Assembly (NCBI GenBank): GCA_030827475.1
Contig: JAUREJ010000006.1
Coordinates: 4,024 to 68,023, forward strand
DNA length: 64,000 nt
Direction: 5' to 3'
From: Poseidonia sp.
GTDB taxonomy: Archaea > Thermoplasmatota > Poseidoniia > Poseidoniales > Poseidoniaceae
A model generated the notes under the pieces. It was not told the origin of the DNA and ran no database searches. It worked only from the letters and a program-made list of their open reading frames with translations. The translations under genes and the position numbers were made by a program. Below, in pieces: positions 25,550 through 62,651 of this stretch (its first letter is position 1; the number at the start of each line of letters is the position of its first letter).

Positions 25550-25575
25550 GTGACAAATCTATTCAGTTGCTCTGG

Positions 25576-33492: not shown

Positions 33493-33493
33493 C

Positions 33494-36606: not shown

Positions 36607-36607
36607 T

Positions 36608-38590: not shown

Positions 38591-41500
38591 CGCATCACCC
38601 CCGTTGTATTCGAAACTCGACTGATATCCCCCTTATTGGCGCCTTTCATTTGAAGATTCAAGTTTGCCGGAGCCGTTGTTGTGAACTTTGAATTCGCACC
38701 ATTGGAGACCTGCATTGTAGAACTTGATGCAGTAGGATATGTTCGAGTTGTTGCAGATGGTGTCTTTCGAACTGCACTTTGCTCGATTTGGTTTGAATTG
38801 AATCGTTGAATTGCTTCCAATTCTTCCATTCGCACAAAGTCTTCTGGGGTCATAATTTTCGAATGCTTTCTTTCAATTTCGTCAATTCGAACATCTTTCT
38901 TTAGTTCTAGTCTTAGCTTCTCTTCTTTTTGAGGTTTTGAACCACTGGATTGCTCGATATATCTTCGGAATGGTAGGTTGTGGACAAATTGTGATTTTTC
39001 GATTTGATTAATCGCCATCGTCTTCAACCATCCCTGAGGCTGTGCAACCGCCCTGAAAAGAGATGAACTACCAGAGAGGAATCGTGGCTGTTGAGGGCTT
39101 GGTGATTTCTTTGCTTTAGGTCGACCATTTGCATCTAAATCACAACGCCAGAGCGTTTCAGGGAAGAATGATGAATGACTAATGAATGAAATGCCATTTG
39201 GGAGTTGTACAGAAGAACCTTCCATTCCTGTGATATAAATCGAAAATGTTGGTTCTACATCATCTTCGATACCACATGGAGCGAGTTGAATATTGTCGAG
39301 TGTTTCTTCATTACGTTCCCTCCAACCAGAATCTATCTCAGAATACCCGTCTATTTGGTTCCATGTGTGCATTGCATGGTATTTTGCAGGGAAGAGGTGT
39401 TGGTGTGTAAGTTCAAACTCTGGCTCAACAACAAATGGTTTGTTCATCGAACCATCACCTTCCTCTCCATCATCGGGTCGGACGACTCCGCTCGGAATTT
39501 GTGAAGTAAATTGGCGTTCTGTGAATTTTTGGGAAAGTGAGGTGCTGTGTTCGGATTCAGGTAATTGCAATACATGTTTGTTGATGAATTCAGGCATGCC
39601 AATGGCTTTGAATGCTCTTGAACTATTTGCACCAAAACTAACCGTGAAGGAGATGATGTACCATTCAATTCGAGCTTTTCCACGCATCTTTGGTCCTTCA
39701 ATTTCCAAATCAGCACCCAAAGAAGCTTTCACAGTTCCGAGCCATGTTTTGTAGCGAACTGAAAGGCCGATATAGACTCGGAAACTGTAATAGAATGGAT
39801 CGAACACAACTAAAACATCCACGCCAGCTTTGAATGACGCCGTTAATGAACCCGATTTGAAACTAGCCTCGAATCCACCGCCTAGCATTACTGCTGACGT
39901 ACATACTGTGAAGTATGCACCACCTTTAATCGTCAATTTTGACATGGGTTTCCAACTAAAACCGAGTCGCGGGACAACTGGATAGTAACTTGGTGCCTTG
40001 AATTTTGGATGGTATCCTCCAAGAGACAAGAGGAATTCACCCCGCTTAAACCAACTAACGAGCGCAAAACCACCCGTAAGTCGACAACTCTTGTGGAATA
40101 AATACGATGCATCTGTGAGTTGAGCCTCAACCCAAAGCAACTGTTCCTGTGAATCAAAGTATGCCAAGAAGGCGAGTTCAACGTAGCCAATACCCAGTTC
40201 TTTTGTTGGTAGCGACATTGATGATAAACCAAGGATACCAATTGTGACACCATTTGATAACTTAACGAAGAGGACTCCTTTTGTTTCAAGCACCTGATAT
40301 GTGGTGAATTTCACCCCTATTGCAAACCATAGACTGTCTCGCTTCGCTGGTAAATCTGTGCGTATTTGTTCAAGTGCTCCCATCGGGTCATCTGCAAATC
40401 CTGAAAGTGTTCGCATGAAGATGCTGTTCGGGACATCAGCGACTTTTGGAACGACAAGGTCGCGATTGAGTCCCAAACCACCGGCGAGTCCAGTGACGAA
40501 AAATTCAGGAATACCACCTAGAGGATAGTCGATTGCAGCAATAACGAAACATGTTACATAAGAACCGTCGGTGCTAGGGATTCGTCCAAATGCACCAATC
40601 GCAGAAATGGATATTGTTGAGGTGCTAATCGTGCAAAGTCCTTGATATTCGATATACTTCTCATTGTCTCCACCACCCGGTACATCAAGTTCTTCTTTTC
40701 GAAGGGCCCCTGCAATTTTGAATGCTGGCCCGCTGTAAGCAAGAGCGCAACCCGCCATGTCATATTTCCATTCGCTGAAGTTGAGAGGCCGGAGAATTGG
40801 TATCGTTACGGACAAATCATCGACTTGTGCCAAAAATCCTGCAATTTCTGCCTCTCCATCGACAAGAATTTTCAAAGACGAATTATCATCAGCTGCAGTA
40901 ATTTTCACGCCGATTTGTGCAATCTTGATTGGACCAAACTGCTTGTTGATGACAAACCATGTTTCAAGTGACCCTGCGACATCAAAATCAACGGGATAAC
41001 CATCATATTTCATGACAGCCAAGTCGAACAATGGTTTGACATTACCGCTTCCTTCGCCATTTCCTGCGAGTACACCTGCAGCGAGTCCATTCCCTCCATC
41101 TTCCTTTCCATCTCCACCGAGTGAAATGCCAAAGTCGTCAAGGTCAAGTCGGCCACCTGCAATGAATCGTTTGGTGGCATCAGTTTCAGTAAATGTCATG
41201 TCGATGACGGTCGTTATACGAACAGCGTTGAGAAGGAGGAATGCATCCAAGAGTGGTTTGCGATCTAATTTAGTAAGCAACATCGAGAGGTACCCGATTT
41301 CAATGCTGAGGAATGGTTGGATGATGAGATTATGTTCGTCTAATGAATACTTTAAGAATTGAATATTGAGGCCGGGAACATATGTTTTCCCTGCACTACT
41401 AGGAACAATTGGTGTCGTGACATCATCAGATGTTCCGATGGTTAACAACAGCCCACCGATTTGGAGTTCTGTGTCTTGAAGGACATCGATACAAATGCCA

Positions 41501-44500
41501 ACAAGACTGAATCCCGTTGAGCCTTCCTCGTCCATAATTGTGAGTGACACTTCAAACAGGTCATCTCCTTCCGATCCACTTGAATCAGATGTTGTGGATT
41601 TTCGTTGATAGGTGAAGAGTTTGATTTTGTTTAAACTTTGAGAGGCTCTTTGAATACAAAAATGAACCATTTCAACGGCACCCTCAAGCAAAACATCGGT
41701 GGCTTTTCGAGGTTCAGTTGGAGTGTAATCTGATACAATTTGTTGAATTGAACGTATCGTGTATGTTCCCTGTGTGCCGCTTGCTGGTGCTGCAATATTC
41801 TCATTAGGATCATCTCCCCAAACATAGGCTTTCAAGTGTACAAGCCAATTACCTAAGATTGTCAATTCTTTAAACAAGACATTGTCGCCATCGTACAGTG
41901 GTGTATTGAGCACGTCTTGTACTGCTTGAAGATTTGAAAGAAAATCTAGAGCAGAATTTGCAGCACCGAGTGCTAATGCACCAAGATTTGGTAGACCCCA
42001 TCGAGTATCTTGAATCCACGGTGTTGAGTTCGGCAGCACCTTTGCCCAAAATGCGTTGACACCATCTCCTGTTTCTGGCATCATATCGGGATTGAGTTTT
42101 GAACTGATGTCCAATGTCAAGTTGCCTCCGCTTAATGAAAAGTGAATGCCAGGTTGAATTTGAAGTGGTGATTGAATGATGGGCAAATTTGTATATGTGT
42201 TCACAGAGACGAACGGCTCAAAGTCATGACCTGCAAATGGCAAACATGCCCCGAGTTCAGAATCAATCGTTAACGAAAGACCAGATGTCGCATCGAGAAT
42301 GATGTCATTTGAATACATGAGCCAAATTGCAAGGCAATCTGAATCTCTTCGCCCAAAGCACAATACTGCAGGGTCATACCACTCCCCAGTTGAATTCGTC
42401 AATGTGACTTCATACCTTTCATTTTGAGAATCATAGTTGATCGTAAAGAAATTGTTGACGGAATCTGGAATGGCGTGTCGGATGTGGCCACCAATTGCAA
42501 AAACGAATGCTCCAAGGCGTTGTTGATTGAAATAGGACTGAACATCTCCGCTACAGAGCTTTAGGTTGTCCATTTGGATTTGATTTGAATCCCAAAAGTC
42601 AATACTGGTAAGAAGGTCGATTAAGATTGATGAAACAGTGTGTTGAACTCCATTCTCGGTGTAGACGACATCTGTTAATGATAGGATAAATTCTGTGATA
42701 AAGATAGGAAGAATATTGTCTACGAAGTCTGCTAATATGTGTCGAAGGAACGCATTTACACCAGAGAGTGAAGGGAGAAGTTGTATCACAGAAGGAGATG
42801 AACTATCTGCTGGATTGAAATCGACTTCAAACGAGAGATTCACTTGATTATTCATCATGCCAAACCGAATCGTGAGTGTTGATGTTGCGAACAATCCGAT
42901 GAAATCTGCTAATGATTGGTTTCCAAGATTGGTAGGCAAGACTGAACCAATGTCGTATGTAAGTATACTTTGACTTCCATTCAAGTCGAAGGTTCCAGCG
43001 GGGTGCATCGTCAAAATGAGTTCTATTGAAGCATTGAGAGATGGTACACCAAAGAGTGAATCAGGAGTGCGAATTTTGAGTGAGAGCGAACCAGGAGCAA
43101 TTGGAGATTCACAAATTTCAATTTCAAATGCAATGGATTCTGCAATCCCAAGACCAATCACAACAGATGTAATCATCGAAGTTTCGTCACCAGGTACTTC
43201 ATATTCGACTACCATTTCTACAGGGAACAATGACAAAATTGCATGCGATAAATTCATCATTGTCTCCATATCAAAGACTGCTCCGTCATACAATGCATCT
43301 CTAAAATGTGCTTGAGGGTCAACGAATATGCCAAAGAGTGACCGTGAAGCCAAGGCCCAGTCTGAGGTACGCTGTGCAAGGTTGAGTTCGACAAATATTG
43401 TCGCAAGAGGTGAATCAGGTGAGAATTTTCGTAAAAATAATCTTTCGACTAAAAGTTGCAAGATATTATCCAAAAGGAGCCCTGGAATCATTGGGAGAAG
43501 GTTGTTTTGAACATCGGAGGCATCAAGTAAATCAATCGACGTTGGCGGATTCGTATTCCATTGAAGTCCACTTGAGTTGATCCATGGCAAAGTTGGCAGT
43601 GAAGGTAAATCAAGGTGCAGTGAGAATGAGGGTTGGATGCCCATCGTCATAGAGGCCCCTTGGAACATCCCTAAACTAGCGACATCAGCGGTCAGTGTGA
43701 GTTCAACATTGAAATGCTCGAACCAAACTTCAGGCTCAAAGAGTGGGATTTGGACAAATGCACTCAAGTCAAGCGGCCCGAGTGGGATGCCAACCATCCC
43801 AATCGATAAATCACCATACCGGCCAAGATTGACGTTGATTTGATACCCTTTGAACAACCCTGGTAATTTGAAATTGAGGTGGCCATCGAAAGGGTCATCT
43901 GGGTCATCAATATAGGTCATCCAAGGCGAAGATTCGGCTAAATGGTCGAACATTGCACGATTCGTTCTTGGTAATAATTTTCCAAAATCAATATCTCCGT
44001 TCGCGTTGGTCATCAAGTCCAAAATGTAAGCTTGAGGGTCTTGTACAAAGGTCAAAAGTGCTGGTCCATCGACCCACCAACGAAGTGTGCTATCTTGAGA
44101 CTGAGGGATGATCTCACTCATTGTCGTCTTGTACATGAGTCCTAACAGGTGCATTCCTTCAAAGAAGGCTTCCACCGCAGGGTTATCAATTTCAAGTGAG
44201 TATGTGGCCAAGAATGCATCAAGACATTCAACAGCACCTTCGAGAATAGTCTCTTGATTCAATACTATACGCCCTGGTATCGGAGCATCCCAATCCATGT
44301 GCCCCAGATATGAAGCATCGTTCAGGATGACTGACGTGTTCCATTCTTGTTGATTCCATGAAGCATCTACTTCTATAGAACGCAACCTATTGTCTTCTTC
44401 AGGGTGCCCAAATAGATATGTCTGGAAGTTGTTTTCATCTTGCTTCCACAACTCAGCTTGAAAGTGTACTGCCGGAGCTGGATGGGGTGGTTCGATTGCA

Positions 44501-44760
44501 TCATCGCCGGATAGGTTGATGTTCATGAGGTCAATTCGACACTGAAAGTCGACAACATGCCCCTCATTGTTATCATTCCCACCGATAGAATTGAGTTCGA
44601 AGCGGACTCCTACACCCGCATGAGTTGGAAGCGAGGCTGTTTCCTGTTCGATATTGAACGAGGAGTCAATGTTCTCCACAAGCTCACTGATGAGTTCCAT
44701 GCATGCATGAGACACAGTAGTTGTATGAAGCGTACTTGCAATGGCCAAACTCGGTATCAT
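38587..44760 (-). CDS. Island gene 4: 2057-aa giant protein; N-terminal 1,200 aa or so unassigned, C-terminal beta-rich module with GGYHP motif
   Basis: Uninterrupted 6.2-kb ORF with no signal peptide. GGGGGT lies upstream of the ATG. The C-terminal region is ...LTGGFALVSWFKRGEFLLSLGGYHPKFKAPSYYPVVPRLGFSWKP...FDPFYYSFRVYIGLSVRY... Confidence 0.85.
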   Translation of the reverse strand: MIPSLAIASTLHTTTVSHACMELISELVENIDSSFNIEQETASLPTHAGVGVRFELNSIGGNDNNEGHVVDFQCRIDLMNINLSGDDAIEPPHPAPAVHFQAELWKQDENNFQTYLFGHPEEDNRLRSIEVDASWNQQEWNTSVILNDASYLGHMDWDAPIPGRIVLNQETILEGAVECLDAFLATYSLEIDNPAVEAFFEGMHLLGLMYKTTMSEIIPQSQDSTLRWWVDGPALLTFVQDPQAYILDLMTNANGDIDFGKLLPRTNRAMFDHLAESSPWMTYIDDPDDPFDGHLNFKLPGLFKGYQINVNLGRYGDLSIGMVGIPLGPLDLSAFVQIPLFEPEVWFEHFNVELTLTADVASLGMFQGASMTMGIQPSFSLHLDLPSLPTLPWINSSGLQWNTNPPTSIDLLDASDVQNNLLPMIPGLLLDNILQLLVERLFLRKFSPDSPLATIFVELNLAQRTSDWALASRSLFGIFVDPQAHFRDALYDGAVFDMETMMNLSHAILSLFPVEMVVEYEVPGDETSMITSVVIGLGIAESIAFEIEICESPIAPGSLSLKIRTPDSLFGVPSLNASIELILTMHPAGTFDLNGSQSILTYDIGSVLPTNLGNQSLADFIGLFATSTLTIRFGMMNNQVNLSFEVDFNPADSSSPSVIQLLPSLSGVNAFLRHILADFVDNILPIFITEFILSLTDVVYTENGVQHTVSSILIDLLTSIDFWDSNQIQMDNLKLCSGDVQSYFNQQRLGAFVFAIGGHIRHAIPDSVNNFFTINYDSQNERYEVTLTNSTGEWYDPAVLCFGRRDSDCLAIWLMYSNDIILDATSGLSLTIDSELGACLPFAGHDFEPFVSVNTYTNLPIIQSPLQIQPGIHFSLSGGNLTLDISSKLNPDMMPETGDGVNAFWAKVLPNSTPWIQDTRWGLPNLGALALGAANSALDFLSNLQAVQDVLNTPLYDGDNVLFKELTILGNWLVHLKAYVWGDDPNENIAAPASGTQGTYTIRSIQQIVSDYTPTEPRKATDVLLEGAVEMVHFCIQRASQSLNKIKLFTYQRKSTTSDSSGSEGDDLFEVSLTIMDEEGSTGFSLVGICIDVLQDTELQIGGLLLTIGTSDDVTTPIVPSSAGKTYVPGLNIQFLKYSLDEHNLIIQPFLSIEIGYLSMLLTKLDRKPLLDAFLLLNAVRITTVIDMTFTETDATKRFIAGGRLDLDDFGISLGGDGKEDGGNGLAAGVLAGNGEGSGNVKPLFDLAVMKYDGYPVDFDVAGSLETWFVINKQFGPIKIAQIGVKITAADDNSSLKILVDGEAEIAGFLAQVDDLSVTIPILRPLNFSEWKYDMAGCALAYSGPAFKIAGALRKEELDVPGGGDNEKYIEYQGLCTISTSTISISAIGAFGRIPSTDGSYVTCFVIAAIDYPLGGIPEFFVTGLAGGLGLNRDLVVPKVADVPNSIFMRTLSGFADDPMGALEQIRTDLPAKRDSLWFAIGVKFTTYQVLETKGVLFVKLSNGVTIGILGLSSMSLPTKELGIGYVELAFLAYFDSQEQLLWVEAQLTDASYLFHKSCRLTGGFALVSWFKRGEFLLSLGGYHPKFKAPSYYPVVPRLGFSWKPMSKLTIKGGAYFTVCTSAVMLGGGFEASFKSGSLTASFKAGVDVLVVFDPFYYSFRVYIGLSVRYKTWLGTVKASLGADLEIEGPKMRGKARIEWYIISFTVSFGANSSRAFKAIGMPEFINKHVLQLPESEHSTSLSQKFTERQFTSQIPSGVVRPDDGEEGDGSMNKPFVVEPEFELTHQHLFPAKYHAMHTWNQIDGYSEIDSGWRERNEETLDNIQLAPCGIEDDVEPTFSIYITGMEGSSVQLPNGISFISHSSFFPETLWRCDLDANGRPKAKKSPSPQQPRFLSGSSSLFRAVAQPQGWLKTMAINQIEKSQFVHNLPFRRYIEQSSGSKPQKEEKLRLELKKDVRIDEIERKHSKIMTPEDFVRMEELEAIQRFNSNQIEQSAVRKTPSATTRTYPTASSSTMQVSNGANSKFTTTAPANLNLQMKGANKGDISRVSNTTGVMR
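39600..41200 (-). other. Beta-rich C-terminal module of the 2057-aa protein (possibly the Pfam DUF6603 family; recollection only)
   Basis: GGYHPKFK back-translated at about 39998..40030. Alternating hydrophobic beta-strand-like patterning runs throughout. The family assignment is from memory and was not checked. Confidence 0.35.
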
Positions 44761-44834
44761 GCCACAACCCCCAAACCTGTTATCGTTAGGTGACGTTCTC
44801 TTGAAAGTCTAGGGCTTGTGTACTCATCACTCAT
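44757..44834 (-). CDS. Candidate 25-aa micro-ORF immediately upstream of, and stop/start-overlapping, the 2057-aa gene
   Basis: Hand translation gives MSDEYTSPRLSRERHLTITGLGVVA. GGAGG (44847..44843) lies 8 nt upstream of ATG 44834. Its TGA overlaps the ATG of the 2057-aa gene (ATGA at 44757..44760). Confidence 0.35.
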   Translation of the reverse strand: MSDEYTSPRLSRERHLTITGLGVVA

Positions 44835-44872
44835 TATTCAATCCTCCTATTTTTCAAATACATGGCTAAATT

Positions 44873-47800
44873 TTAGGGCTCCCATGTGGAAGGCTCAAAG
44901 AATTGCATCTCCCTGATTGCAGTATTAAACGTTGCATCTATTTCTCTTAACTGAGCTGCTCTTGCCTCAGGTGTATCAACTTGCAGGTCTGGTGCTCTGT
45001 ATGCCGTTGGTATATTGCCATTGTTTGTGAATATTGAATCAACATCAATAATTTTGCTTGTGTAGTTGATTCCCGCTCCAATTCGGCCTGAGAGGTTAAC
45101 TTGGCCCTGAAAGCCGTTTTGTACGGCTGATATTTTTTCGACCTGAACACATACGTTCTCAAATCGAGTCGAAGGTGACGTTAAGTCTGCCATGATGACG
45201 AAAATGGATCTTTTGTCAGATTCAGTAATGAGTGCCTGAAATATTTGAAAAACATTGTAGAGCGTTGCGTCGAACATGATGGAACATTGGATTTCGACAT
45301 CATCTACCCCAATTGAAGCAGTCAACTTGACGCTACGTAACTCATCACGATTATCGAATACGCTAGCGTCCATCTTCTGCTGGAATCCTTTGCTGCTGAT
45401 GGTGTTTGTATCCTCATGTATGAATTGTTCGATCGGGTCTTTCGTCTTATTTGCATTGTCAGGGCCTAAGTTTGAAGACATGAGCCGGATTTCAAATCCA
45501 AAAGATGTAGACAGCCTGATTGATTTTTGTGTTCTTAAATCAAAAGTACCGTGGGTTCGTAGGTTGAAATCTTCAGTCTCGCCAGCATCATTTTTCAAAC
45601 CGTCCCCATAACTTTCAAGATGTTCCATGATGCCAAGGGAAAAACCTATTCCGCCTTTAACTGCTATTTGGCCGCTCAATCCCCATCCAGATTTCCCTGT
45701 CGTATAGTCGTCCTCATAGTATGCCAAAATATCGATTTTACCACCTAAACTCGCTGCGAACTCCATTATTTTGGTGTTGAGAATTGGAAGATCAACATTA
45801 ATGGCGAAATCGACTTGTGCCTCAGTTTGGAAATTCAATCCACATCTCCAACGAGCACGAGAATCAGTTGCTGTTTGTGTGATCAGATCCGTTCCAGTGA
45901 ACAATTCGGCAGGGTATTGGCCAATGACTGACGACAGCATCAAGAAGGGAAAACATTCACATATTGCGTCTGTGTTTTGAAAAATGTATGCATTTGAATT
46001 GAATAACCTCGCGAAACCTTTGAAGGATGCGTTCGTGTTTTTGCCGACAGCAAACTTTGGCTTGGTTTTCCGATCATTTTTGGTTTTTGGAACATTATCA
46101 AATGACCAGGTTTGCGATCGTATCCCGTACTCAACGCCGCCTCCAAACAAAAATTGAGTTTCAACTTGGTATTTTCCGCCATCTAATTTTGTAATTGTAT
46201 ATTTGCATGTTGATGTGATGGCGTAAGTAAAGTACAAACTGACATCAACAAAGGCTTCAATTTGATTCCCTACCTTTGTGAGTTTTTCAAGATGTTTCTC
46301 AAGTTCTAATACCTTGACTAATTTCTCACCAATTGTCTCGTCCAATGGAAGGGTAGCATCATATTCTTGATCTCTACTCTTGGAGAATGCCGTCCAATCA
46401 GTCATGGTGGGTGCTCTTGCACTAAGGATACTGATTTCCACGTCGCCATTTGGAGAATGTGTGTTTTCATTCGTAACGATGCACATGTTTAATGTGAGAT
46501 AGAATTCACCGACAGAAACTTCTTTAATATTCGGTTGAGGCTTTGACAGGGCGTCACAACTTGAGTTGATTCTCAGATAAAGAACATCGCCCCCATGCAT
46601 TTCTACCTCGATATAAGAACGAGTCAAAAAATCCGGCTTGAAATTTCCTATGTAGGGGTGGGTCCTTCCGTCAGGGATGGAATTCGTCAGGTAATTTGGT
46701 GGGCCACGAACCGACATACGAACCGTCCAGCCTTGGCTGATGACGATTTTTGCAATCGAACCACCCCCATCGTGCTTGAGTGTCAATTTGTCGGGATCGT
46801 CGAAATGGTGATGGCCATGAATTTCGAACGTCGAAAATGGGTCATCAAATTTCACAATTTTTGCCTCTTCATTTGCTTGGTGACGTGTGTAGAGCGTCTG
46901 AATATTGGAGGTCGGGGGCACATGGAAATCGAGTTGATATCTGTTGATGGCATTCAACAAATCTTCATCAAAATCTCCATCCAAGGAGATGACATCATCC
47001 CCGATTTCATCGCAACAGATTTGCCGCAGTGCCTTGACACCTTGCTTCGTCCGATTGCAATACTTCCCCGTGACTTTTTCATTGAAGAGCCCGAATGATC
47101 GAAGGAGCAGTTGAATGGAGCTTACAATATCCGGATTGTTGAGATTAATTGTTGAAAATTCCTCTATATCTCGTTCAAATGCGTGGCCGTCAAACAATGT
47201 ATCGAGGGAGCCAAAAAAATGTTCTCGTGTGTCACTCGATAACAACCGGAGCTGCACCTTTGCCGTTGGGATTTGACCTTTCGTGTTTTTATCTCCCCCG
47301 AATGCTCCAATCAATGTCAAATCGTTATTCTCGAAGCTTGAAACAAAATCAACTTGAACAACCCGACCATTTGTGTTTTTGAAAAACACCAAATCTCCTA
47401 CTTCTGGTATGGCAACTTGGTCGAATTTTTCTGTCATTTTTGCTGAAGACATGTCCTTCCAGTTCAAATTAAACAACGAGTTTAGAACATAGAGGACAAA
47501 CCCTGAGCAATCGGTTCCAGGACCTCCTTCATTTTTTGGGGTGTTACCGCCCCAATAATACGGATCGTTAAGATATGTTTTTGCCTTTTCCACGATTTGT
47601 TGGCGGAAGTCGTGTTCTCTGTTGGCGAGTTGTGAGCTAGTTTGATTTCTATTGATGATATCTGCAATTTCTTGTGCGGTATGGGATTGGGGCGTTTTTG
47701 AGATACTATGGATTGAAATCAGCAAATGTTCATCCAAGGCTTTGGGTTGCTCAAGAATGGCCTCTCCATTTCGAATAATTCTACAATGAAATGCCTCACC

Positions 47801-48286
47801 CCTTTCCTCCATCCAACTACCGTCGATGTCGATATGAAACGTGTCGCCCCCTTTGAATTCAAATTCTGTGCAGCCGGGTGCCTGGCTGGCTTGGTTCTCA
47901 CTATGACGAATTCGAACTTGTTGTATTGAACGCTCAGTATATGACTCATTCTTGCACAACTGATGAAATTTTCCATCGCGTTGTGAGGTATTGATGTACA
48001 CGGGTTGAGGGTACTTCATTACTCGAACGCATAACCGTACAGTGTATCCGTTTTTGACAACCACCTTCAGATAACCAGATTTTCTTCCGACTGGCCAGTC
48101 TGAATCTTTAACCAAAATTTGTGAAGAGCCAATCATTGTGCCTCCATATTCAAGGTGTCCTTTGTCTTCAGTTGGTGCAAGAATAAGGCCTTTTGAGATG
48201 CACGTGGTGAAAGGTTGAAGAGGATCATCTTCACTTGATTTCAAGTAAAAATCCCACGATTTTACCTTGATTTTTTGTTCAGTCAT
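44873..48286 (-). CDS. Island gene 3: 1137-aa protein with NlpC/P60-like and peptidoglycan-binding-like domains, no signal peptide
   Basis: Start moved to ATG 48286, preceded by AAGGAGTGAGGAAA; this overlaps the 1557-aa gene by 8 nt. NlpC/P60 context: YLNDPYYWGGNTPKNEGGPGTDCSGFVLYV...GDLVFF. PG_binding_1-like segment: VSSIQLLLRSFGLFNEKVTGKYCNRTKQGVKALRQ. The remaining 800 aa or so are unassigned. Confidence 0.85.
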   Translation of the reverse strand: MTEQKIKVKSWDFYLKSSEDDPLQPFTTCISKGLILAPTEDKGHLEYGGTMIGSSQILVKDSDWPVGRKSGYLKVVVKNGYTVRLCVRVMKYPQPVYINTSQRDGKFHQLCKNESYTERSIQQVRIRHSENQASQAPGCTEFEFKGGDTFHIDIDGSWMEERGEAFHCRIIRNGEAILEQPKALDEHLLISIHSISKTPQSHTAQEIADIINRNQTSSQLANREHDFRQQIVEKAKTYLNDPYYWGGNTPKNEGGPGTDCSGFVLYVLNSLFNLNWKDMSSAKMTEKFDQVAIPEVGDLVFFKNTNGRVVQVDFVSSFENNDLTLIGAFGGDKNTKGQIPTAKVQLRLLSSDTREHFFGSLDTLFDGHAFERDIEEFSTINLNNPDIVSSIQLLLRSFGLFNEKVTGKYCNRTKQGVKALRQICCDEIGDDVISLDGDFDEDLLNAINRYQLDFHVPPTSNIQTLYTRHQANEEAKIVKFDDPFSTFEIHGHHHFDDPDKLTLKHDGGGSIAKIVISQGWTVRMSVRGPPNYLTNSIPDGRTHPYIGNFKPDFLTRSYIEVEMHGGDVLYLRINSSCDALSKPQPNIKEVSVGEFYLTLNMCIVTNENTHSPNGDVEISILSARAPTMTDWTAFSKSRDQEYDATLPLDETIGEKLVKVLELEKHLEKLTKVGNQIEAFVDVSLYFTYAITSTCKYTITKLDGGKYQVETQFLFGGGVEYGIRSQTWSFDNVPKTKNDRKTKPKFAVGKNTNASFKGFARLFNSNAYIFQNTDAICECFPFLMLSSVIGQYPAELFTGTDLITQTATDSRARWRCGLNFQTEAQVDFAINVDLPILNTKIMEFAASLGGKIDILAYYEDDYTTGKSGWGLSGQIAVKGGIGFSLGIMEHLESYGDGLKNDAGETEDFNLRTHGTFDLRTQKSIRLSTSFGFEIRLMSSNLGPDNANKTKDPIEQFIHEDTNTISSKGFQQKMDASVFDNRDELRSVKLTASIGVDDVEIQCSIMFDATLYNVFQIFQALITESDKRSIFVIMADLTSPSTRFENVCVQVEKISAVQNGFQGQVNLSGRIGAGINYTSKIIDVDSIFTNNGNIPTAYRAPDLQVDTPEARAAQLREIDATFNTAIREMQFFEPSTWEP
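46960..47135 (-). other. Peptidoglycan-binding (PG_binding_1-like) segment
   Basis: DIVSSIQLLLR back-translated at 47100..47131 and TKQGVKALRQ at 47021..47050. The match to the family pattern is loose. Confidence 0.4.
47290..47600 (-). other. NlpC/P60-like domain (Cys retained; Gln at the position where the catalytic His is expected)
   Basis: The Cys codon TGC of DCSGF is at 47509..47507. After GDLVFFKNTNGR the sequence reads VVQVDFV where HVGIY is canonical; the Gln codon is at 47356..47354. Confidence 0.55.
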
Positions 48287-51200
48287 TTTCCTCACTCCTT
48301 TGCATCTTTTTCATGATCTCGTCACTGAACATCAAATTCCCGAGTTGTTCAACAAATGCTTTGTTTTGAATGACCGTATCATTTGGTCCTGATTGAACAC
48401 CAGGTATCGAATGAGTGGATGGCGGTCCAACTGGGATGGCACCCAACAATCGAAGCAGATGCAAAAACAGATACATGTCATCTCCATTGGGAGCATCACG
48501 GACCGGTTGAGCATCAAGTGGTGAAGAGATTGTAACCACACCTGCAACCCTCTCTTCTACAGTATCTTCGCCTTCGGTATCCGTGAGGTAGGTTCCATTT
48601 TCATCTTGTTGCGTGTAATATTTCGCTGCCAGTCCGCCAATTGAGTGGCCGATGATGAACACCTTGCCTCCATTGGACTGTGAAATGTGCTCCACCATTA
48701 GTTTCACCTGTTGTGCTAACAATAGGTCGTATTTTTCCGAATTTTGAATCGAAAATGATGGTTTCAGTACATTTACTCGCTGCGGCTGAGCCAATTGATT
48801 GGCATGAGAAAGAATCGTTGTTTCGCTGAGTTGTGGCCAAGCGGAGAAATCAAACAATGGAGATGTCGTGACGTTAACATTCAACGTCTGATATAATGCC
48901 GTTGCGATGGTTTGACAATTTGACGGGTCAAGCCAGTATGGAACAATGAGAAGGACACTCAGGTCATCATGAGTATCTTGAAGGAGATTCAAAAATGAGG
49001 TGCATTCTTGAATGACCGATACGTCTTGAATAGTATCAAAATGATGAGAGACGGGCGACAAACTTTGTTGACGATTGGCCCATTCGTTCATTGGCTCGAG
49101 TTGGTTGATTTCATGAATCAATCCATCGGAATTTCGAAGATACAATTCAAGGCCACGTAGCGATTTCCGAATTTGCGCTACCGACATGTGTCCAATCGCA
49201 TGTTTTGCTCTCCGGTCGAATTGCTGGAGGTAGTGAATCATAAACGCAAGTGAGTGTTCCCAGCCAATAGGAAGTTGAGGGTGTTGGTGTGGAGTGAACG
49301 TTGATTGATACATTGAATTGACAATGGCTAGAATTTCTCCATTCAAATGCGAGAGTATTTCTTCAACATGTTGGCGCGGCAATCCATCAGGGTCGAGCCA
49401 AAATAGGAGTTCAAATTTAGGCCAGCCTTTTGGCTGGATCCCCATTGCCCAAGGGTCTTCATACGTTCCAGTTCCATCGACAGTCCACGGTATCTTTGGT
49501 AGCGCAAGACCAAATGGATTATTTGGTCGATGTTGCGTATCACGGTCAAAATCGAGTTCAAATTCAAAATCAAACTCGAAATCAAAATTCAACCATGAAC
49601 GTTCACGCTGAGGTTGTTGTCGATTCTTACCCCAGCCAATATCTGGTAATCTCAGGTCGGGCAGGCTGCCAGAGAACAAGCCAAATATCCAGCGTAATGC
49701 GGGGAAGGCGAAGGGTTCTCCACTCTTGGAAGAGGCCGAGAAAATGTGGCGAAGAAATATTCGTAGACTTTCAAAAGGATTATCAACGAACAGATCAAAA
49801 TCAAGTTCTGGCCAATCGAAGGGGAGAGAAAATGGTCCTAAACCGAATGAGTGTTCTGACATTCCATGGAATATTTTCCATCGTTCTGGCCAATCTGGTA
49901 AGCTAACATTTGGAAGCGTAAAATCGCCTCGGGTGAGGAATTGGCGAAGGTCCATATGAGGGAACGTTGAATCAAGGTTGAAAAATCCCCCAAGAAAAAA
50001 TCCAAGTCTTCCTCCCCGAATGGTTAGGAATTGACCAAGTAATATCTTGATTTGTGGAAGTTTCAAGAAATCACCAAGATTCCAGTTGGAAAACTGACCA
50101 CTCATGCTTGGGAATAATTGTTGGAATAACGACGACAAGTCAAACGACAGTCCATCAAAATCAATCGAACGAATCGTGAGTTGTGGGACGCTAAACAACG
50201 ATGCCAAGGAACCCGATGAGAGGCTAATCGAGGGTAATGATGGAAGGTTAAGATGTGAGCCGAGGTCAAGCGGCCACGGTATGGCGTCGAATGATAACTT
50301 CGGGAGCCATCCGCCATTTCCATCAGGTCGGTGATGCCAGCCTAAGTCGATACCTGAAAAAATGATAAACGAACCGTCGGGAAGCGTAAGTGAAATGCCA
50401 TCCCAAGAAAGACCCCGAAGAAGCGAAAAGTCAAACTCTGGCCCGACAAGTTGCGGTAATTGGATGAAGAATTGCTTCAAATCAGGCATCTGACCAGAGC
50501 ACTGCAAATCATCAATCGTCACATAATAGCCGTATGAAATCGATGGGAAACGGACCCATTCGAATCCAAGCGTGACCTCTTGGAGTGTCAAGGAAACGGA
50601 TGAGTAAGAAATTAAATTCATGGGTGGGTGCTCATTTTCAACCATTTTTCTCTTCATGGATGCTTCAAGATTGGCCCGTGTGGCCCATGATGCATCGGTC
50701 AGTTGTTGAGGTGGCAAGAAACAAGAGAACAGGATGAAGTAGATGCCGACATCCATTTCAAGTCGTCCTCCTATGTTGACATGTTCAAATCCGAAAAATG
50801 GTAGAATTGAAAGTTGGTCAGATTCTTCTTCGAATTCAAACTCAAGATTGAGCGGAACAACCGAATCTATAGGGGTGAATTGAAGTGTATGATGGTGCAG
50901 TGTTCCATCGGTTTCATATGATATTCCAGCGGCAATCTCCTCCCATTCACGAATTGGAAGGATGCTTTCACCTTTGGATAATTGGAAAAAGGAATGCAAG
51001 ATGTCTTGAACGGCCTCGGCGATAAAACTCCAAGCATGTGTGTTCGAAATGGCTGAACCTTCTGTACCCGGAACTGACGATATCCTAAACAGTTCACGAT
51101 GATATCGGCCTATGGATTGGAGTGGTTCAGTGATGTATTGCAGAAGTGTTGGCATGCTCACGAGATTACCGCCCTGATTGGTGCCTCCAACACGCAAATC

Positions 51201-52952
51201 AAGAGCACCACCTTCCCAAACATTCGATTGGAACGTCCCTCCTCGTGGTGAACACAATCCAAGGATTGCACCCAATCGTTGGAGTATTGGGTCGGTACTG
51301 AATGTTTGTGAAATGATACTTCGGAGCTGAATGAGAGCTTCTTCCAACGCTGCTTCAGCAAGTGAATCATTGAGAAGGTCAAATTCTGGAAACGATTGGT
51401 TTCCTAAGTTAAGGTCCACAAGCAAACAATATGGATGAAGCCCTGTGCCTTTGATGAAGTCAAGACCCATCAAAAAGGCACCCACCGAGCATTGACCGTT
51501 TAAACCATCAATGGCTGGCTGAAACAAGTTGGATGCATCAACGTTGAACAAAAACTCCGAGACGATTGGATTGATTGAAAACTCGAGGGAAATCTCAGGA
51601 GCAAAGTCAAATAAATTTGAGCCTTCGGATTTTAATCGAATGAGGTGGAAACGTAGGCCTAAATCTAATTCGACCGAGTTGATAGGTTTGGTAAGTTCGC
51701 AAAACATTCCAAAATTAAAACATGGAATGCCATCGCTTGAAGTATCATTCCAAAGGTCGAGATAAAGGGTAAAATTTGTTGTTGACATCCATTCTATTCG
51801 CCAAGGGTTGTCCCTTGTCATGTCAAGTTGATATCTGTCAAACCCAGAGAAATCTACATTCGTTACCGTACCAATAAAAAATTGTCGAATATGTCCGAGC
51901 CATCGGTACAAGTTTTCGGAATCTGTAACAATCTCAAAGATCCAATCTCGAATTGCATTGAGGGCATATTGTGGGCTACCAAGATTCATCATGATATCAA
52001 GCACCGGCAACGTTGGAAGTTCTAATCCTTCGACACTCGCTTCAAGCAATCCGAGGGCAGGGAAAAGATGTTGACGAAGCAGTTCATTTCCGATGGATGA
52101 AGAAAATGTTTGGAACAGTTGATTCCAATCAGGCATGAAACCTCCTGAGGGGGTAACAAGGTCTATACCCACATCCACTGGGGTGGTGTTCATCGATCCG
52201 CTGAATTCAACAAGCGTGAGGTCAACATCCGAACCAACTGGGGAAATTGCACAAGCGATGTCAATAGACTTACATTTTGCACTTCCTACTTGTTCATTCA
52301 CCAAAAGAAATTCCCCTTCGTGAGGGGAGAACGATGCTTGAATTGAGACAGAGCAAAGTTGCTGTGCATCTAAGGAATCTAAAGCGCCTGCGTCTTCTTT
52401 TTTGAGCATAACCATCGTGGAAATGTCAGTCGCACTGGAAATTGAGCCAAAAAGCGGGAGGCTTATTGCTAAATTGAGGCGAACATTTGTTTGACCGATT
52501 CTGAAGTTAAGAACTCTCAAACCTGCACCTATGACGAGTGACTGACAATGATGCCCATCAGCTAATTTCTCATCAAGTTCTGTTCTGTGCAAGGTGATAC
52601 ACGTTTCGACGACTGTTCCATCCGACCCTATGGGTGTTTCCATAATCTTGTACCAAGTTTCTTCAATCGAATTTAGAGAAAATTCTGCTGTTACGTGGCC
52701 ATCTGTACTTCGATACATTGGAAACGATTGAATGGTTGAATCGAGCATATCGAGAATTGTGAGTATAGCGGATGTTCGCTCATAACTTTTTGCAAAATCC
52801 ATTGCTTTTGAGAAATTCCATCCGTCCAAATCGAGATGCTGCCCTGTAGGGTCAAGGAGACCCAACGCTTCCAGGATTGGCAATATTGGTTCAGCAATAT
52901 CTTCAGCGAAATCAGTTAATCCGATTTGTACCGACGGACTAGACAACAGCAT
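48279..52952 (-). CDS. Island gene 2: 1557-aa giant protein with C-terminal alpha/beta-hydrolase (lipase / PGAP1-like) domain
   Basis: AAAGGAGGTGA lies directly upstream of ATG 52952. The start overlaps the CBS gene by 14 nt. The nucleophile elbow is VFIIGHSIGGLAAKYY, followed by VAGVVTISSPLDAQP. No signal peptide. The N-terminal 1,350 aa or so are unassigned. Confidence 0.85.
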   Translation of the reverse strand: MLLSSPSVQIGLTDFAEDIAEPILPILEALGLLDPTGQHLDLDGWNFSKAMDFAKSYERTSAILTILDMLDSTIQSFPMYRSTDGHVTAEFSLNSIEETWYKIMETPIGSDGTVVETCITLHRTELDEKLADGHHCQSLVIGAGLRVLNFRIGQTNVRLNLAISLPLFGSISSATDISTMVMLKKEDAGALDSLDAQQLCSVSIQASFSPHEGEFLLVNEQVGSAKCKSIDIACAISPVGSDVDLTLVEFSGSMNTTPVDVGIDLVTPSGGFMPDWNQLFQTFSSSIGNELLRQHLFPALGLLEASVEGLELPTLPVLDIMMNLGSPQYALNAIRDWIFEIVTDSENLYRWLGHIRQFFIGTVTNVDFSGFDRYQLDMTRDNPWRIEWMSTTNFTLYLDLWNDTSSDGIPCFNFGMFCELTKPINSVELDLGLRFHLIRLKSEGSNLFDFAPEISLEFSINPIVSEFLFNVDASNLFQPAIDGLNGQCSVGAFLMGLDFIKGTGLHPYCLLVDLNLGNQSFPEFDLLNDSLAEAALEEALIQLRSIISQTFSTDPILQRLGAILGLCSPRGGTFQSNVWEGGALDLRVGGTNQGGNLVSMPTLLQYITEPLQSIGRYHRELFRISSVPGTEGSAISNTHAWSFIAEAVQDILHSFFQLSKGESILPIREWEEIAAGISYETDGTLHHHTLQFTPIDSVVPLNLEFEFEEESDQLSILPFFGFEHVNIGGRLEMDVGIYFILFSCFLPPQQLTDASWATRANLEASMKRKMVENEHPPMNLISYSSVSLTLQEVTLGFEWVRFPSISYGYYVTIDDLQCSGQMPDLKQFFIQLPQLVGPEFDFSLLRGLSWDGISLTLPDGSFIIFSGIDLGWHHRPDGNGGWLPKLSFDAIPWPLDLGSHLNLPSLPSISLSSGSLASLFSVPQLTIRSIDFDGLSFDLSSLFQQLFPSMSGQFSNWNLGDFLKLPQIKILLGQFLTIRGGRLGFFLGGFFNLDSTFPHMDLRQFLTRGDFTLPNVSLPDWPERWKIFHGMSEHSFGLGPFSLPFDWPELDFDLFVDNPFESLRIFLRHIFSASSKSGEPFAFPALRWIFGLFSGSLPDLRLPDIGWGKNRQQPQRERSWLNFDFEFDFEFELDFDRDTQHRPNNPFGLALPKIPWTVDGTGTYEDPWAMGIQPKGWPKFELLFWLDPDGLPRQHVEEILSHLNGEILAIVNSMYQSTFTPHQHPQLPIGWEHSLAFMIHYLQQFDRRAKHAIGHMSVAQIRKSLRGLELYLRNSDGLIHEINQLEPMNEWANRQQSLSPVSHHFDTIQDVSVIQECTSFLNLLQDTHDDLSVLLIVPYWLDPSNCQTIATALYQTLNVNVTTSPLFDFSAWPQLSETTILSHANQLAQPQRVNVLKPSFSIQNSEKYDLLLAQQVKLMVEHISQSNGGKVFIIGHSIGGLAAKYYTQQDENGTYLTDTEGEDTVEERVAGVVTISSPLDAQPVRDAPNGDDMYLFLHLLRLLGAIPVGPPSTHSIPGVQSGPNDTVIQNKAFVEQLGNLMFSDEIMKKMQRSEEND
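48282..48960 (-). other. Alpha/beta-hydrolase domain coding segment (GHSIG nucleophile)
   Basis: The Ser codon TCA is at 48644..48642, from back-translation of FIIGHSIGGLAAKYY. Confidence 0.6.
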
Positions 52953-54291
52953 TCACCTCCTTTTGAGCCGGCGATGTTGGTTTTGTCACAAGGAGCCCAC
53001 GTTGGTTCACTGAAAATTCACCTGCAACTGTTCTACGGGGTGTTGAAGCATCGATCCATTCCAAAACATGTTCCCATGTTTTTTCGATAACAAGTTTACC
53101 CCAGACTTCTTGGATGATCTCGTGCGTCTCTAAATTTCGTTGAACTGCGGCACTCCTATTCGCATTCGATTCGGAATTACCCAAATCAAATTCAATGGTT
53201 ACAGGTTGTTTCCCACTTTGGTCGGTTTCGACAGGGAACTCTATGTAAATGACCTCGCCATCTTGCTTGACGATCAACTCGTTTGTGTGAACGATGATTT
53301 CTGAGCCAAGATGTGTCCATACAACAGGGCTCTCTTGTCCATTGGTGTACCTGCGGATGAGATGAGGTCCGAGTGAAGTAAATGTGCCATCATGCTCAAT
53401 TTCTTCGACGATGTGGCCGCTTAATTCACGGAAGTCGGTGGGGCTTAGAAATCCTACGAACATGTTATTCTGGTCAAGAACAATAACGCCATCTGGTTTC
53501 CTTTCCCGTATGGTGTCCAATGCAATATCAAGAGGAGTGTCTTCCCTTAATCTTAGAAGATTTGTTTTCATGTGTTTTTTTATTTTTTCTTTCCGACCAA
53601 GTTTACCCCCAGCGATGATTCGGAGAACATGTTGCACTGAGAGCACACCTTCAATGCCTTTCTTTGACCCCTGTGCAAGAACAAATTGAACCGATGGACG
53701 TCGCAAGAGCAAAGAGGCTGAATCAAGGGTATCATTCACACTTACAATTCGAAACTCATCTCGTAGGTCCACGGCCTCCCCAATGGTTTCAGGTGCAATA
53801 TTCTCCTTCTGTGTTGAGATGAGCATTTTTGATTTCATTTCTCGAAAGTCAGCAGCACTGATGTATCCTTCGAACGTGTCTTGGTCATTAATCACAAGAA
53901 CGGCATGAGGTTGCCTTTCCTGAATGATTTCAATCGCCTTGTCAAGTGGAGTATTGCTTCGTAATCGAAGAACTTCGGTTTGCATGACCGATGTCACAGG
54001 TGTTGAAACTGGGTCAGCACCTTCGGCGAGGTGGTGAAGCAAGATTTGCATTTTCAAGATACCAACGATTCCCCTCCCTTTTTTTCCTCGAACGAGTACT
54101 GCCGAATATTGCACGGGCGAGAGGGCTTTTGCTGCATCTGCTAGAACTGCGTTATATTCAAGAATCGCATACTCATCCCGGAGGTTCAATTCGCCGATAG
54201 TCGAGACCATGCAATCAACATACTTCCATACCTCGTGGAACTCAAATACTTTATTCAGTTGAATTTTCAAAATCAATTGACAGAGGTTCAT
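52939..54291 (-). CDS. Island gene 1: multi-CBS-domain protein (about four CBS motifs) with an unassigned C-terminal domain of about 150 aa
   Basis: Repeated CBS-like units are present (VTSVMQTEVLRLRSNTPLDKAIEIIQERQPHAVLVINDQDTFEGYISAADF; similar units up- and downstream). Start uncertain: ATG 54291 chosen, ATG 54210 is an alternative. The ORF-track start at 54444 would overlap the divergent gene. Confidence 0.65.
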   Translation of the reverse strand: MNLCQLILKIQLNKVFEFHEVWKYVDCMVSTIGELNLRDEYAILEYNAVLADAAKALSPVQYSAVLVRGKKGRGIVGILKMQILLHHLAEGADPVSTPVTSVMQTEVLRLRSNTPLDKAIEIIQERQPHAVLVINDQDTFEGYISAADFREMKSKMLISTQKENIAPETIGEAVDLRDEFRIVSVNDTLDSASLLLRRPSVQFVLAQGSKKGIEGVLSVQHVLRIIAGGKLGRKEKIKKHMKTNLLRLREDTPLDIALDTIRERKPDGVIVLDQNNMFVGFLSPTDFRELSGHIVEEIEHDGTFTSLGPHLIRRYTNGQESPVVWTHLGSEIIVHTNELIVKQDGEVIYIEFPVETDQSGKQPVTIEFDLGNSESNANRSAAVQRNLETHEIIQEVWGKLVIEKTWEHVLEWIDASTPRRTVAGEFSVNQRGLLVTKPTSPAQKEVNAVV

Positions 54292-54327
54292 GAAAAACAC
54301 TTTATCTAACCTGTCAACTTTCCAACC
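54211..54327. promoter_or_regulatory. AT-rich divergent intergenic region between the two CBS genes; candidate bidirectional promoter
   Basis: TTTATCTAA at 54301..54309 sits about 19-27 nt upstream of ATG 54328, which has no SD. This is consistent with an archaeal TATA box and a leaderless mRNA. AATAAAGTATTT lies on the other strand, upstream of the 54210 candidate start. Confidence 0.3.
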
Positions 54328-54750
54328 ATGGCAAAGAATGAACCAATGCTGAAGGATTTGCGACATGCTGATTCCTATGCAATCGTTGAGCCTGATGTTC
54401 CCATGCCTGAAATTGCGAAATTGTTTGCAAAGGACCCGAACCAAGCCGTCCTCGTTTTGAATCCAAAAAAGAACAAATTTGTCGGCGTTATGTACCTCTA
54501 CGATTTGTTGACGCTGTATGGTTCACCGCCCAGACATGTTGAGTCGATACACAAAGCGACGATTGGTCAATGTGCAAATACAAGAGTCATTTCAATCCAA
54601 TGGGATGAAAACATCTCACAAGCTTGGGCGAAAATCAACAAATACAAACCAAAAGCAGTCCTTCTTCACGATGAGAGCAAAGAATTTGTCGGATACATCT
54701 CGAATGAGGATCTATGGGAAGCCCTTGAGGAGATTGGCATCGGCGAGTAA
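54328..54750 (+). CDS. Stand-alone CBS-pair protein (140 aa), divergent from the operon
   Basis: Two CBS-like units are present (LKDLRHADSYAIVEPDVPMPEIAKLF...AVLVLNPKKNKFVGVMYLYDLL and IGQCANTRVISIQWDENISQAWAKINKYKPKAVLLHDESKEFVGYISNEDLW). The composition is AT-rich like the island. Confidence 0.75.
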   Translation: MAKNEPMLKDLRHADSYAIVEPDVPMPEIAKLFAKDPNQAVLVLNPKKNKFVGVMYLYDLLTLYGSPPRHVESIHKATIGQCANTRVISIQWDENISQAWAKINKYKPKAVLLHDESKEFVGYISNEDLWEALEEIGIGE

Positions 54751-54894
54751 AGTGGATTGAACGTTCCTTACAGATATTCGGGTTGTTTGGGATAATCTAT
54801 ACAGTTTATTCTGGTGAAATGCCATGGGATTGGTTATGAACAAGTTGGTCTATAAAATCACAATTTGGACTACGAACGAATCAATTCGGATGCG

Positions 54895-54924
54895 TTGGAA
54901 GGGGCTATCCGAAACCCCATCCAA
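54895..54924 (-). terminator. Hairpin downstream of ribH at the right island border
   Basis: TTGGAAGGGG-ctatccgaaa-CCCCATCCAA (10-bp stem, one mismatch), about 78 nt downstream of the ribH-like stop on the minus strand. Confidence 0.25.
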
Positions 54925-55001
54925 CAGCAAGAAGTTGTTGGAAGGGCTTTGCGTGGGTCTGTTTGTTCGCTACCCATGAAGATACCACGCAGTGCGTGGC
55001 T

Positions 55002-62460: not shown

Positions 62461-62578
62461 GAAAACACCTCCGACACCTTGCGGTTTAGGCCACCCGAAA
62501 ATCCTGACTCGTATAATGTTTAGGGCGCCCGAAACACTTTCAGGAACTGGGAGCAAAAGGGTATGGTTTGAGCGGAAG

Positions 62579-62651
62579 TAGTCCCTCCCGGATTCGAACC
62601 GAGGTCGGAGGAACCAGAATCCTCCATGATGGACCGCTACACTAAGGGACT
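62579..62651 (-). tRNA. tRNA-Gln (anticodon CUG)
   Basis: Hand-folded cloverleaf: acceptor AGTCCCT/AGGGACT (A1:U72), D-arm GTGT...TCAT with GG in the loop, anticodon stem GAGGA/TCCTC with loop TTCTGGT, T-arm CTCGG-TTCGAAT-CCGGG, discriminator A. No encoded CCA. Confidence 0.85.

Follow-up and report, generated by a model that had tools for sequence, protein, structure and literature searches.

A conserved operon in a genomic island of Poseidonia

We analyzed a 64,000 nt stretch of DNA from Poseidonia sp. (contig JAUREJ010000006.1), hereafter the window, and focused on one gene, hereafter the target, whose 1137-amino-acid (aa) product contains an NlpC/P60 papain-like domain followed by a PG_binding_1-like segment. 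The original prediction, made from the letters of the window, had taken this protein singly; it is actually a hypervariable cassette inside a conserved operon that encodes a DUF6603 protein. The operon extends from 54444 down to 29348, entirely on the minus strand and with gene ends overlapping or closely spaced, in the order CBS-domain gene (501 aa), g1557, target, g2057, g660, g580, g476, g464 and g922 (Table 1). The gap between the target and g2057 is 112 nt in the window (44761..44872). In two other islands (L083, 3767..3877; L090, 9870..9992), small open reading frames (ORFs) of 36-40 aa are called at this place.

Table 1. Positions of the features discussed, counted from the first letter of the window (AF2, AlphaFold2 model; GC, guanine plus cytosine).
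Feature	Coordinates	Strand	Basis or remark
Target gene (1137 aa)	44873..48286	minus	hypervariable cassette of the operon
RepA1 (aa 1-200)	47687..48286	minus	beta-rich, GGD..F..DID motif; alignments; homologous to RepA2
NlpC/P60 papain-like domain (aa 237-370)	47177..47578	minus	Pfam, LytE alignment, AF2, Foldseek
Cys260, nucleophile position	47509..47507 (tgc)	minus	GTDCSGF; LytE alignment, 21 family members
Gln311, at LytE first-His position	47356..47354 (caa)	minus	LytE alignment, 21 family members
Gly327, at third-triad-residue (LytE second His) position	47308..47306	minus	LytE alignment
PG_binding_1-like three-helix segment (aa 383-450)	46937..47140	minus	Pfam and AF2 helices
RepA2 (aa 481-625)	46412..46846	minus	second RepA copy; hhalign
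C-terminal beta-meander (aa 671-1090)	45017..46276	minus	strands ~20 aa each; AF2 secondary structure
CBS-domain protein	52939..54444	minus	first operon gene; C-terminal part matches bacterial b212
g1557 (1557 aa)	48279..52952	minus	upstream partner; aa 1-600 conserved
g1557 hypervariable C-terminal ~350 aa (aa 1200-1557)	48282..49355	minus	holds alpha/beta-hydrolase nucleophile elbow
g1557 Ser1437	48644..48642	minus	motif; in nucleophile elbow GHSIGG
g2057 (2057 aa)	38587..44760	minus	downstream partner; DUF6603; first ~100 aa hypervariable
DUF6603 domain of g2057 (aa 1271-1750)	39511..40950	minus	Pfam E=6.7e-122
Core genes g660 (He_PIG, Ig-like), g580, g476, g464, g922	29348..38590	minus	Pfam, BLAST/phmmer
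Low-GC island	25500..54950	.	~43% GC vs ~56% in flanks, sharp borders; GC profile; operon and two further genes
TSP_3-repeat surface protein	26319..29249		signal peptide and C-terminal anchor; island member
Multi-transmembrane protein	25576..26319		island member
ribB, cytidylyltransferase-like and GpsA observations	56012..57213 and 58595..59593		

The target was read from an ATG, which gives 1137 aa; an alternative in-frame GTG at 48295 would give 1140 aa. The ATG was preferred because it is backed by a public ENA gene call with an identical product, is preceded by a GGAG/GAGG motif and overlaps the stop codon of the upstream g1557 by 8 nt. An exact look-up of the 1140-aa product among public gene calls found no match. 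The Pfam scan of the target used the 1140-aa version, from which the 1137-aa numbering is obtained by subtracting 3.

The flanks of the island belong to Poseidoniaceae, a family of the Marine Group II (MGII) archaea. Among 595 related genome loci retrieved with the flanking E1 dehydrogenase gene, the best 80 all came from Poseidoniales, and the gene was 82-86% identical to Poseidonia/Poseidoniaceae metagenome-assembled genomes (MAGs) and ~60% identical to Thalassarchaeaceae. According to a study of Poseidoniales viruses, genomes of this order contain no complete gene cluster for murein or pseudomurein (PMC11706807). The GC jump does not stem from an assembly chimera, because the gene order of the island recurs within a 679-kb contig of an archaeal MAG at NCBI (L084, GCA_027618765.1) and on an 84-kb JGI contig (L098); this comparison covered the interior of the island. 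Neither an att-like direct repeat >12 nt nor a tRNA was found at the island borders.

Homologs of the DUF6603 protein lie on archaeal metagenome contigs (81-95% and ~47% identity), and bacterial DUF6603 giants of 3200-3600 aa are encoded in Gemmatimonadota, Aliiroseovarius sp. S1339 and Marihabitans asiaticum, the latter two being in culture. Together with these, the DUF6603 proteins of fungi indicate that the domain crosses all three domains of life; two fungal examples (P0181 and P0182, from Naviculisporaceae sp. and Arthrobotrys musiformis) are 2200-2400 aa long, and one of them also bears a Lactamase_B domain. We mapped the archaeal genes on the Gemmatimonadota locus, whose order is b212 - Hcp - b3575 - b643 - b360 - b1298, by BLAST and phmmer. 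g1557, g2057 and g660 match successive parts of b3575, with g660 corresponding to the C-terminus of the giant, while g580 matches b643, g476 matches b360, and g464 and g922 match b1298. The bacterial giant is annotated with PGAP1 and DUF7379; g1557 itself matches PGAP1 and LCAT in Pfam only weakly, with scores that do not reach the threshold. The order of core gene sizes is also seen in the Aliiroseovarius and Marihabitans loci and in a fourth one from bacteria (GCA_023423335.1). The synteny that defines the operon comprises a DUF6603 protein, a b212-like protein before it, and b643, b360 and b1298 homologs after it. In contrast to this gene-for-gene mapping, the hidden Markov model (HMM) of the target family had no match in the four bacterial loci. 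These results indicate that the archaeal system is a split bacterial giant, with the target as an addition at the first split point.

In the Gemmatimonadota locus L085 (GCA_040384045.1), a T6SS_HCP gene (9494..9988) for an Hcp-like tube protein immediately precedes the gene for the 3575-aa giant, and a MoxR AAA ATPase is encoded close by. We rejected Hcp as a core component: only one of the four bacterial loci has it, and the archaeal islands all lack it.

Apart from He_PIG and CBS, no Pfam family was found in the partners of the DUF6603 protein, and searches of the PDB with the sequences of g922, g580, g476 and g1557 returned nothing meaningful. The AF2 model of the DUF6603 domain is all-beta, with a predicted local distance difference test score (pLDDT) of 78 and >90 in the core; it had no significant match in the PDB by Foldseek, the best hits being generic large beta-barrels and beta-belts with template modeling (TM) scores <0.3. 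A literature search under the name DUF6603 gave no paper.

We give almost no credence to the explanation that the island is a provirus or tailocin-like element whose target protein is a virion-associated cell-wall lysin. The sharp low-GC borders, the Hcp-like gene before one bacterial giant and PHROG matches of the target to minor tail proteins (phrog_329, E=1.5e-11) would fit such an element. However, these matches cover the NlpC/P60 segment only, and the other island proteins had no PHROG match except for a marginal one of unknown function. Pfam scans revealed no capsid, terminase, sheath, tube, baseplate or integrase, no relative was found in IMG/VR, the borders lack att repeats and tRNAs, and Hcp is missing from the three other bacterial loci and the archaeal islands.

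The NlpC/P60 and PG_binding_1 module

The target protein has the order RepA1 - helix - NlpC/P60 - PG_binding_1 - RepA2 - beta-meander - C-terminal helix. The two RepA copies are homologous (aa 23-196 vs aa 481-625; hhalign probability 96.8%, E=2.8e-10), and the AF2 model represents the beta-meander as ~420 aa of very long beta-hairpins. Foldseek matched the meander to NalP, FadL and BamA with TM <0.2 and a root-mean-square deviation (rmsd) of ~20 A, which is a topology-level likeness only. Profile-profile comparison rejected homology of the meander with RepA and, with a probability of 1.9%, a relationship of the target family with DUF6603. The mean pLDDT of the whole model is 65. Neither an N-terminal hydrophobic segment or signal peptide nor a transmembrane helix was found in the sequence of the target.

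The NlpC/P60 assignment rests on both sequence and structure, and these matches are far beyond chance. Pfam NLPC_P60 (PF00877) matched over positions 2-62 of its 105-position profile, with E=1.5e-9 and 38.2 bits vs a curated cut-off of 23. The profile of the target family retrieved Bacillus subtilis LytE from the PDB (E=9e-11), and aa 230-370 of the AF2 model, where the pLDDT is 82-91, superpose on LytE (8i2d) with a TM of 0.77, an rmsd of 2.1 A and 30% identity by Foldseek. Viral structures matched by Foldseek were lysins only, via the NlpC/P60 domain.

NlpC/P60 enzymes rely on a Cys nucleophile and a His base (PMC12067865). The Cys is retained in the target as Cys260, while Gln311 and Gly327 occupy the positions of the two LytE histidines, and Asp313, two residues past the His position, is invariant in the family. 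The third-triad column of LytE is occupied by Gly in all 21 aligned family sequences. Gln311 is also encoded on L091, a JGI metagenome contig of independent origin with 99% identity; it is therefore real and not a sequencing error. The replacement of the general-base His and of the third triad residue makes it unlikely, as judged from these residues, that the window allele is an efficient peptidase or an active antibacterial enzyme.

Pfam PG_binding_1 (PF01471) matched the downstream segment over positions 4-36 of its 57-position profile, with E=4.4e-6 and 27.2 bits vs a cut-off of 23. The AF2 model places helices at 385-397, 411-428 and 441-449, with a pLDDT of 61-78 and without a separate structural match. 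The segment is kept in all relatives, including two proteins without an NlpC/P60 domain (P0008, 33 bits; P0015, 26 bits). The family profile retrieves PG_binding_1 repeat proteins, and its second-tier matches are modular hydrolases composed of PG_binding_1 and NLPC_P60.

Several claims of the original prediction are borne out by these results, namely the NlpC/P60 pattern, the PG_binding_1-like segment, the lack of a signal peptide, a murein-free archaeal host and the Gln codon where the canonical His is expected. The model has the papain-like fold, but of the Cys-His-polar triad it has Cys260 only. The flanking regions, which had been left unassigned, now resolve into a duplicated beta domain and the C-terminal meander. 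The suggested murein-directed antibacterial role as an active enzyme is improbable for the window allele, where both the His and the third residue are gone.

It is very unlikely that the module serves a substrate other than murein, such as the host's own surface proteins or glycopeptides, gamma-glutamyl polymers, or lipids in an LRAT/HRASLS-like manner, with PG_binding_1 as a protein-protein module. In its favor, the host has no murein, the adjoining domain of g1557 is lipase-like, the NlpC/P60 superfamily includes lipid acyltransferases (an LRAT match was seen for a related NlpC/P60 protein), and PG_binding_1 forms a pro-domain in matrixins. However, the closest matches are murein D,L-endopeptidases, foremost LytE, and phage lysins, the second-tier profile matches are modular hydrolases of the same composition, and the window allele lacks the His anyway.

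Allele exchange, constraint and further features of the window

The target family is rare. A word-indexed search found three relatives, and HMMER against 1.84 billion representative proteins found seven matches below 1e-30, the remaining matches being confined to NlpC/P60 or PG_binding segments. No relative was found when 185,579 species genomes were scanned with alignment A1, whose two peptide patterns would miss several allele groups (motifs such as GLGTDCSGF and GNGTDCSGF).

We compared four complete archaeal islands, those of the window, L084, L089 and L090. The CBS gene is 90-97% identical among them, g660, g580, g476, g464 and g922 are 71-99.5% identical, and the DUF6603 gene is 81-89% identical; identity falls to 67-77% in g1557 and to 25-36% in the target. 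The drop is steepest between the window and L089, whose five downstream genes are 98.5-99.5% identical, with 88% in the DUF6603 gene, 69% in g1557 and 25.5% in the target. Likewise, the DUF6603 gene of L093 is 93.5% identical to that of the window and its target 27.6%. In the profile per 100 aa, the divergence peak comprises aa ~1200-1557 of g1557, the whole target and aa 1-~100 of g2057, and is flanked on either side by zones of intermediate identity; g1557 is 93-99% identical over aa 1-600 and 19-37% over aa 1200-1557, and the target 15-41%. The combination of near-identical neighbors and a diverged target indicates recombinational exchange of an old, diverged cassette.

The GC content of the target is 35-39.5% vs 41-44% in its neighbors in L084 (6429..9884), L089 (6431..9976) and L090 (6376..9888), and 42% in the window. 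These differences are consistent with cassettes of different origin or age.

The 21 sequences of the target family fall into six allele groups with <=38% identity between groups. All alleles share the domain order, and the gene next to the target is that for the 2057-aa DUF6603 protein. The catalytic positions read Cys-His in four of the six groups, Cys-Gln in the group of the window, and Ser-Gly in one; P0003 and L089 carry a Cys-His allele, P0004 and L083 the Ser-Gly allele. The Ser of the g1557-type hydrolase motif GHSxGG is kept in five of the six groups; GVGxGG replaces it in one (L090, L093-L095), which keeps Cys-His. The groups without the Cys-His dyad keep the hydrolase Ser, and no observed group lacks both activities.

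Across group representatives, conservation is highest in the NlpC/P60 domain (43%; 54% in the N-lobe), followed by PG_binding (33%) and the rest of the protein (20-28%). The ratio of nonsynonymous to synonymous substitution rates (dN/dS), calculated with a custom Nei-Gojobori script, is 0.11-0.38 within groups, which indicates that the alleles are working genes. The lowest ratio of any domain, 0.03 (dN 0.010, dS 0.33), was obtained for the NlpC/P60 domain of the Ser-Gly group. Such strong constraint on a domain devoid of both Cys and His points to a non-catalytic role, e.g. ligand binding, and shows catalysis to be dispensable in the family. The group of the window consists of two near-identical sequences, for whose module we infer purifying selection by analogy with the other groups.

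These measurements bear on two further explanations. That the NlpC/P60 module of the window allele is a decaying relic without function is highly improbable: although its His is lost and two near-identical sequences are too few to measure selection, two assemblies show an uninterrupted reading frame, no other part of the protein is as well conserved across groups, and the Cys- and His-less domain shows the low ratio given above. We hold it to be distinctly unlikely that the target is a working peptidoglycan endopeptidase used against bacteria or to process prey, which would leave the cell through a dedicated export route or upon lysis. In favor of this reading, both domains of the module are genuine, the DCSG motif with Cys260 is kept, Asp313 is invariant, and bactericidal peptidoglycan hydrolases (PGHs) are known from other murein-free archaea. 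However, two independent assemblies have Gln311 in place of the His, Gly stands at the third position, catalysis is dispensable in the family, and the protein is embedded in a multi-protein operon rather than being a free enzyme.

Several other features of the window lie outside the operon. Next to an archaeal-type DHBP synthase gene (ribB) is one for a 158-aa cytidylyltransferase-like protein, possibly a RibL-type FAD synthase, and a bacterial-type NAD-dependent glycerol-3-phosphate (G3P) dehydrogenase (GpsA) is present, which fits the reported G3P-lipid potential of Poseidoniales. In the high-GC flank, a 1367-aa ORF without a Pfam family (4916..9019) adjoins a 702-aa subtilase (2796..4904). 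The listed ORF 61429..62682 overlaps tRNA-Gln(CTG) at 62578..62651; thus, the start of this phosphonate-binding-protein gene is probably further downstream.

Proposed role and comparison with known systems

We tentatively read the target as the variable, envelope-directed subunit of an MGII DUF6603 apparatus, with the window allele acting as a binder or adaptor; this joint reading seems to us plausible rather than probable. MGII archaea would share with bacteria a DUF6603 system, a large multi-protein apparatus. The single bacterial giant of ~3300-3600 aa, with its alpha/beta-hydrolase and DUF6603 beta-domain, is split into three genes in archaea, and the lineage-specific target, carrying an NlpC/P60 and PG_binding_1 module that would have been captured from bacteria or phages, occupies the first split point. 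The hydrolase C-terminus of g1557, the target and the first ~100 aa of g2057 swap as one recombining block, of which at least six ancient allele types are maintained. On this reading, such variability marks a part in contact with a changeable external partner, be it a target cell, prey or an enemy. Judging from their residues, the Cys-His alleles, which are the majority, probably cut peptidoglycan stem peptides, while the window allele, having lost its His, would most likely only bind murein or muropeptide-like ligands, as the analogous RipD does; the adjoining alpha/beta-hydrolase of the window allele keeps its putative nucleophile. The operon products would then form a complex exposed outside the cell, with murein as the ligand of the module and a role in antibacterial action or prey contact.

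A number of observations weigh against this reading. Signal peptides and transmembrane helices are absent from all eight core proteins, and there is no sign that any component of the operon leaves the cell; the existence of fungal DUF6603 proteins also fits an intracellular role. Both Pfam domain matches are partial. PG_binding_1 is also found in the pro-domains of matrix metalloproteinases, so that the segment need not bind murein. As every allele lacks the third triad residue, even the Cys-His alleles are only putative enzymes. The complementary retention of at least one predicted activity is suggestive and is seen in six groups only. Unlike classical polymorphic toxins, the alleles vary in sequence and not in domain type, and no small immunity gene follows the target.

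An intracellular conflict system (anti-virus defense, abortive infection or self/non-self recognition), with the hypervariable block as a sensor or specificity determinant, is unlikely. Here, the NlpC/P60-PG_binding module would be repurposed, for example to recognize viral lysis or entry proteins or peptide ligands. The absence of secretion signals from the core proteins and the DUF6603 proteins of fungi hint at the cell interior; the operon lies in a low-GC flexible island, the system occurs sporadically across bacteria, archaea and fungi, and determinants of immune specificity typically recombine and show extreme diversity of alleles. Lipase-like alpha/beta-hydrolase domains are known as cell-death effectors in fungal and bacterial immune proteins. 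Moreover, Poseidoniales viruses encode murein-type amidases whose role is unknown (PMC11706807). On the other hand, PADLOC gave no match on the island, Pfam found no NTPase, nuclease or other defense domain in the core proteins, the target is absent from the bacterial loci, and the Ig-like He_PIG domain and the adjacent TSP_3 protein, which has a C-terminal anchor besides its signal peptide, hint at a role outside the cell.

A bolder form of the envelope-directed reading, which we consider unlikely, is that the DUF6603 operon is an unrecognized signal-peptide-independent giant-protein apparatus that MGII archaea have armed to attach to, attack or feed on bacteria. The arming would consist in the recombining cassette, which pairs lipase-like with murein-hydrolase-like modules. 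If this were true, an archaeal group that ranks among the most abundant in the surface ocean would antagonize bacteria by a new mechanism.

Archaeal PGHs including those of Poseidoniia were published in 2025 (PMC12352652), and the inter-domain reading is therefore not new in itself. What is new is a hypervariable, recombining cassette inside an uncharacterized cross-domain operon, with a natural series of catalytic and non-catalytic alleles. MGII archaea are abundant and uncultured, and the locus offers a concrete candidate for how they interact with bacteria. The murein-directed module occurs only in the archaeal form of the cross-domain operon and is part of a block subject to diversifying or balancing selection over the long term. 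The series of Cys-His, Cys-Gln and Ser-Gly alleles, with or without the lipase Ser, can be used to separate catalysis from binding. A module that only binds murein may serve in adhesion or in the recognition of prey; should other alleles cut, they would provide a new delivery context for archaeal PGHs. The analysis also brings to attention the DUF6603 system, which has no solved relative and a predicted fold without a significant PDB match.

About 5% of archaeal genomes encode modular PGHs, prominently in Thermoplasmatota; 68% of these proteins lack signal peptides, and two kill bacteria (Strock et al., PLoS Biol 2025, PMC12352652). The catalogue includes PF00877 among its catalytic domains and lists Poseidoniia, with SH3_3+NLPC_P60 in Marine Group IIb and PG_binding_1+Amidase_2 in Marine Group III (PMC12352652). 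With one catalytic and one binding Pfam domain in a single archaeal protein, the target falls within the definition of an archaeal modular PGH, and it resembles the Woldo/Danwoldo class in its murein-free archaeal host, its catalytic-type and PG_binding_1 domains and its lack of a signal peptide. In contrast to these PGHs, it is 1137 aa long with ~850 aa of unrelated beta-rich domains, is encoded in a conserved nine-gene operon, is hypervariable and lacks the catalytic His in the window allele.

The B. subtilis D,L-endopeptidases LytE and CwlS include the closest solved structure, that of LytE, whose DCSG Cys is conserved in the target. LytE has the triad Cys-His-His where the target has Cys-Gln-Gly, and it is a secreted bacterial autolysin with LysM repeats, whereas the target carries PG_binding_1.

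Effectors of the type VI secretion system (T6SS) include Tae NlpC/P60-type amidases and Tle lipases. The archaeal locus shares with polymorphic toxins and the T6SS the logic of a conserved N-terminal part followed by an exchanged, variable block that is lipase-like and murein-hydrolase-like. However, alternative toxin folds and a downstream immunity gene are not found, and the archaeal islands lack sheath, tube and baseplate genes in Pfam and PHROG searches, Hcp being limited to a single bacterial locus.

The hypervariable Ig-domain module of Thermococcales, as outlined by Makarova et al. 2021 (PMC8416519), also combines a large protein with a hypervariable component at an archaeal locus and has been read in terms of conflict or self/non-self recognition. 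Its proteins appear unrelated and its host lineage is another; the module is set apart here by its description, without a homology test.

Mycobacterium tuberculosis RipD is a non-catalytic NlpC/P60 peptidoglycan binder (PMC12067865), in which the fold is retained with substituted catalytic residues and the binding role is kept. RipD is small, secreted and acts on the wall of its own bacterium, whereas the host of the target is wall-less and the window allele still has its Cys. By analogy, RipD would nevertheless be the best functional counterpart for both the window allele and the Ser-Gly group.

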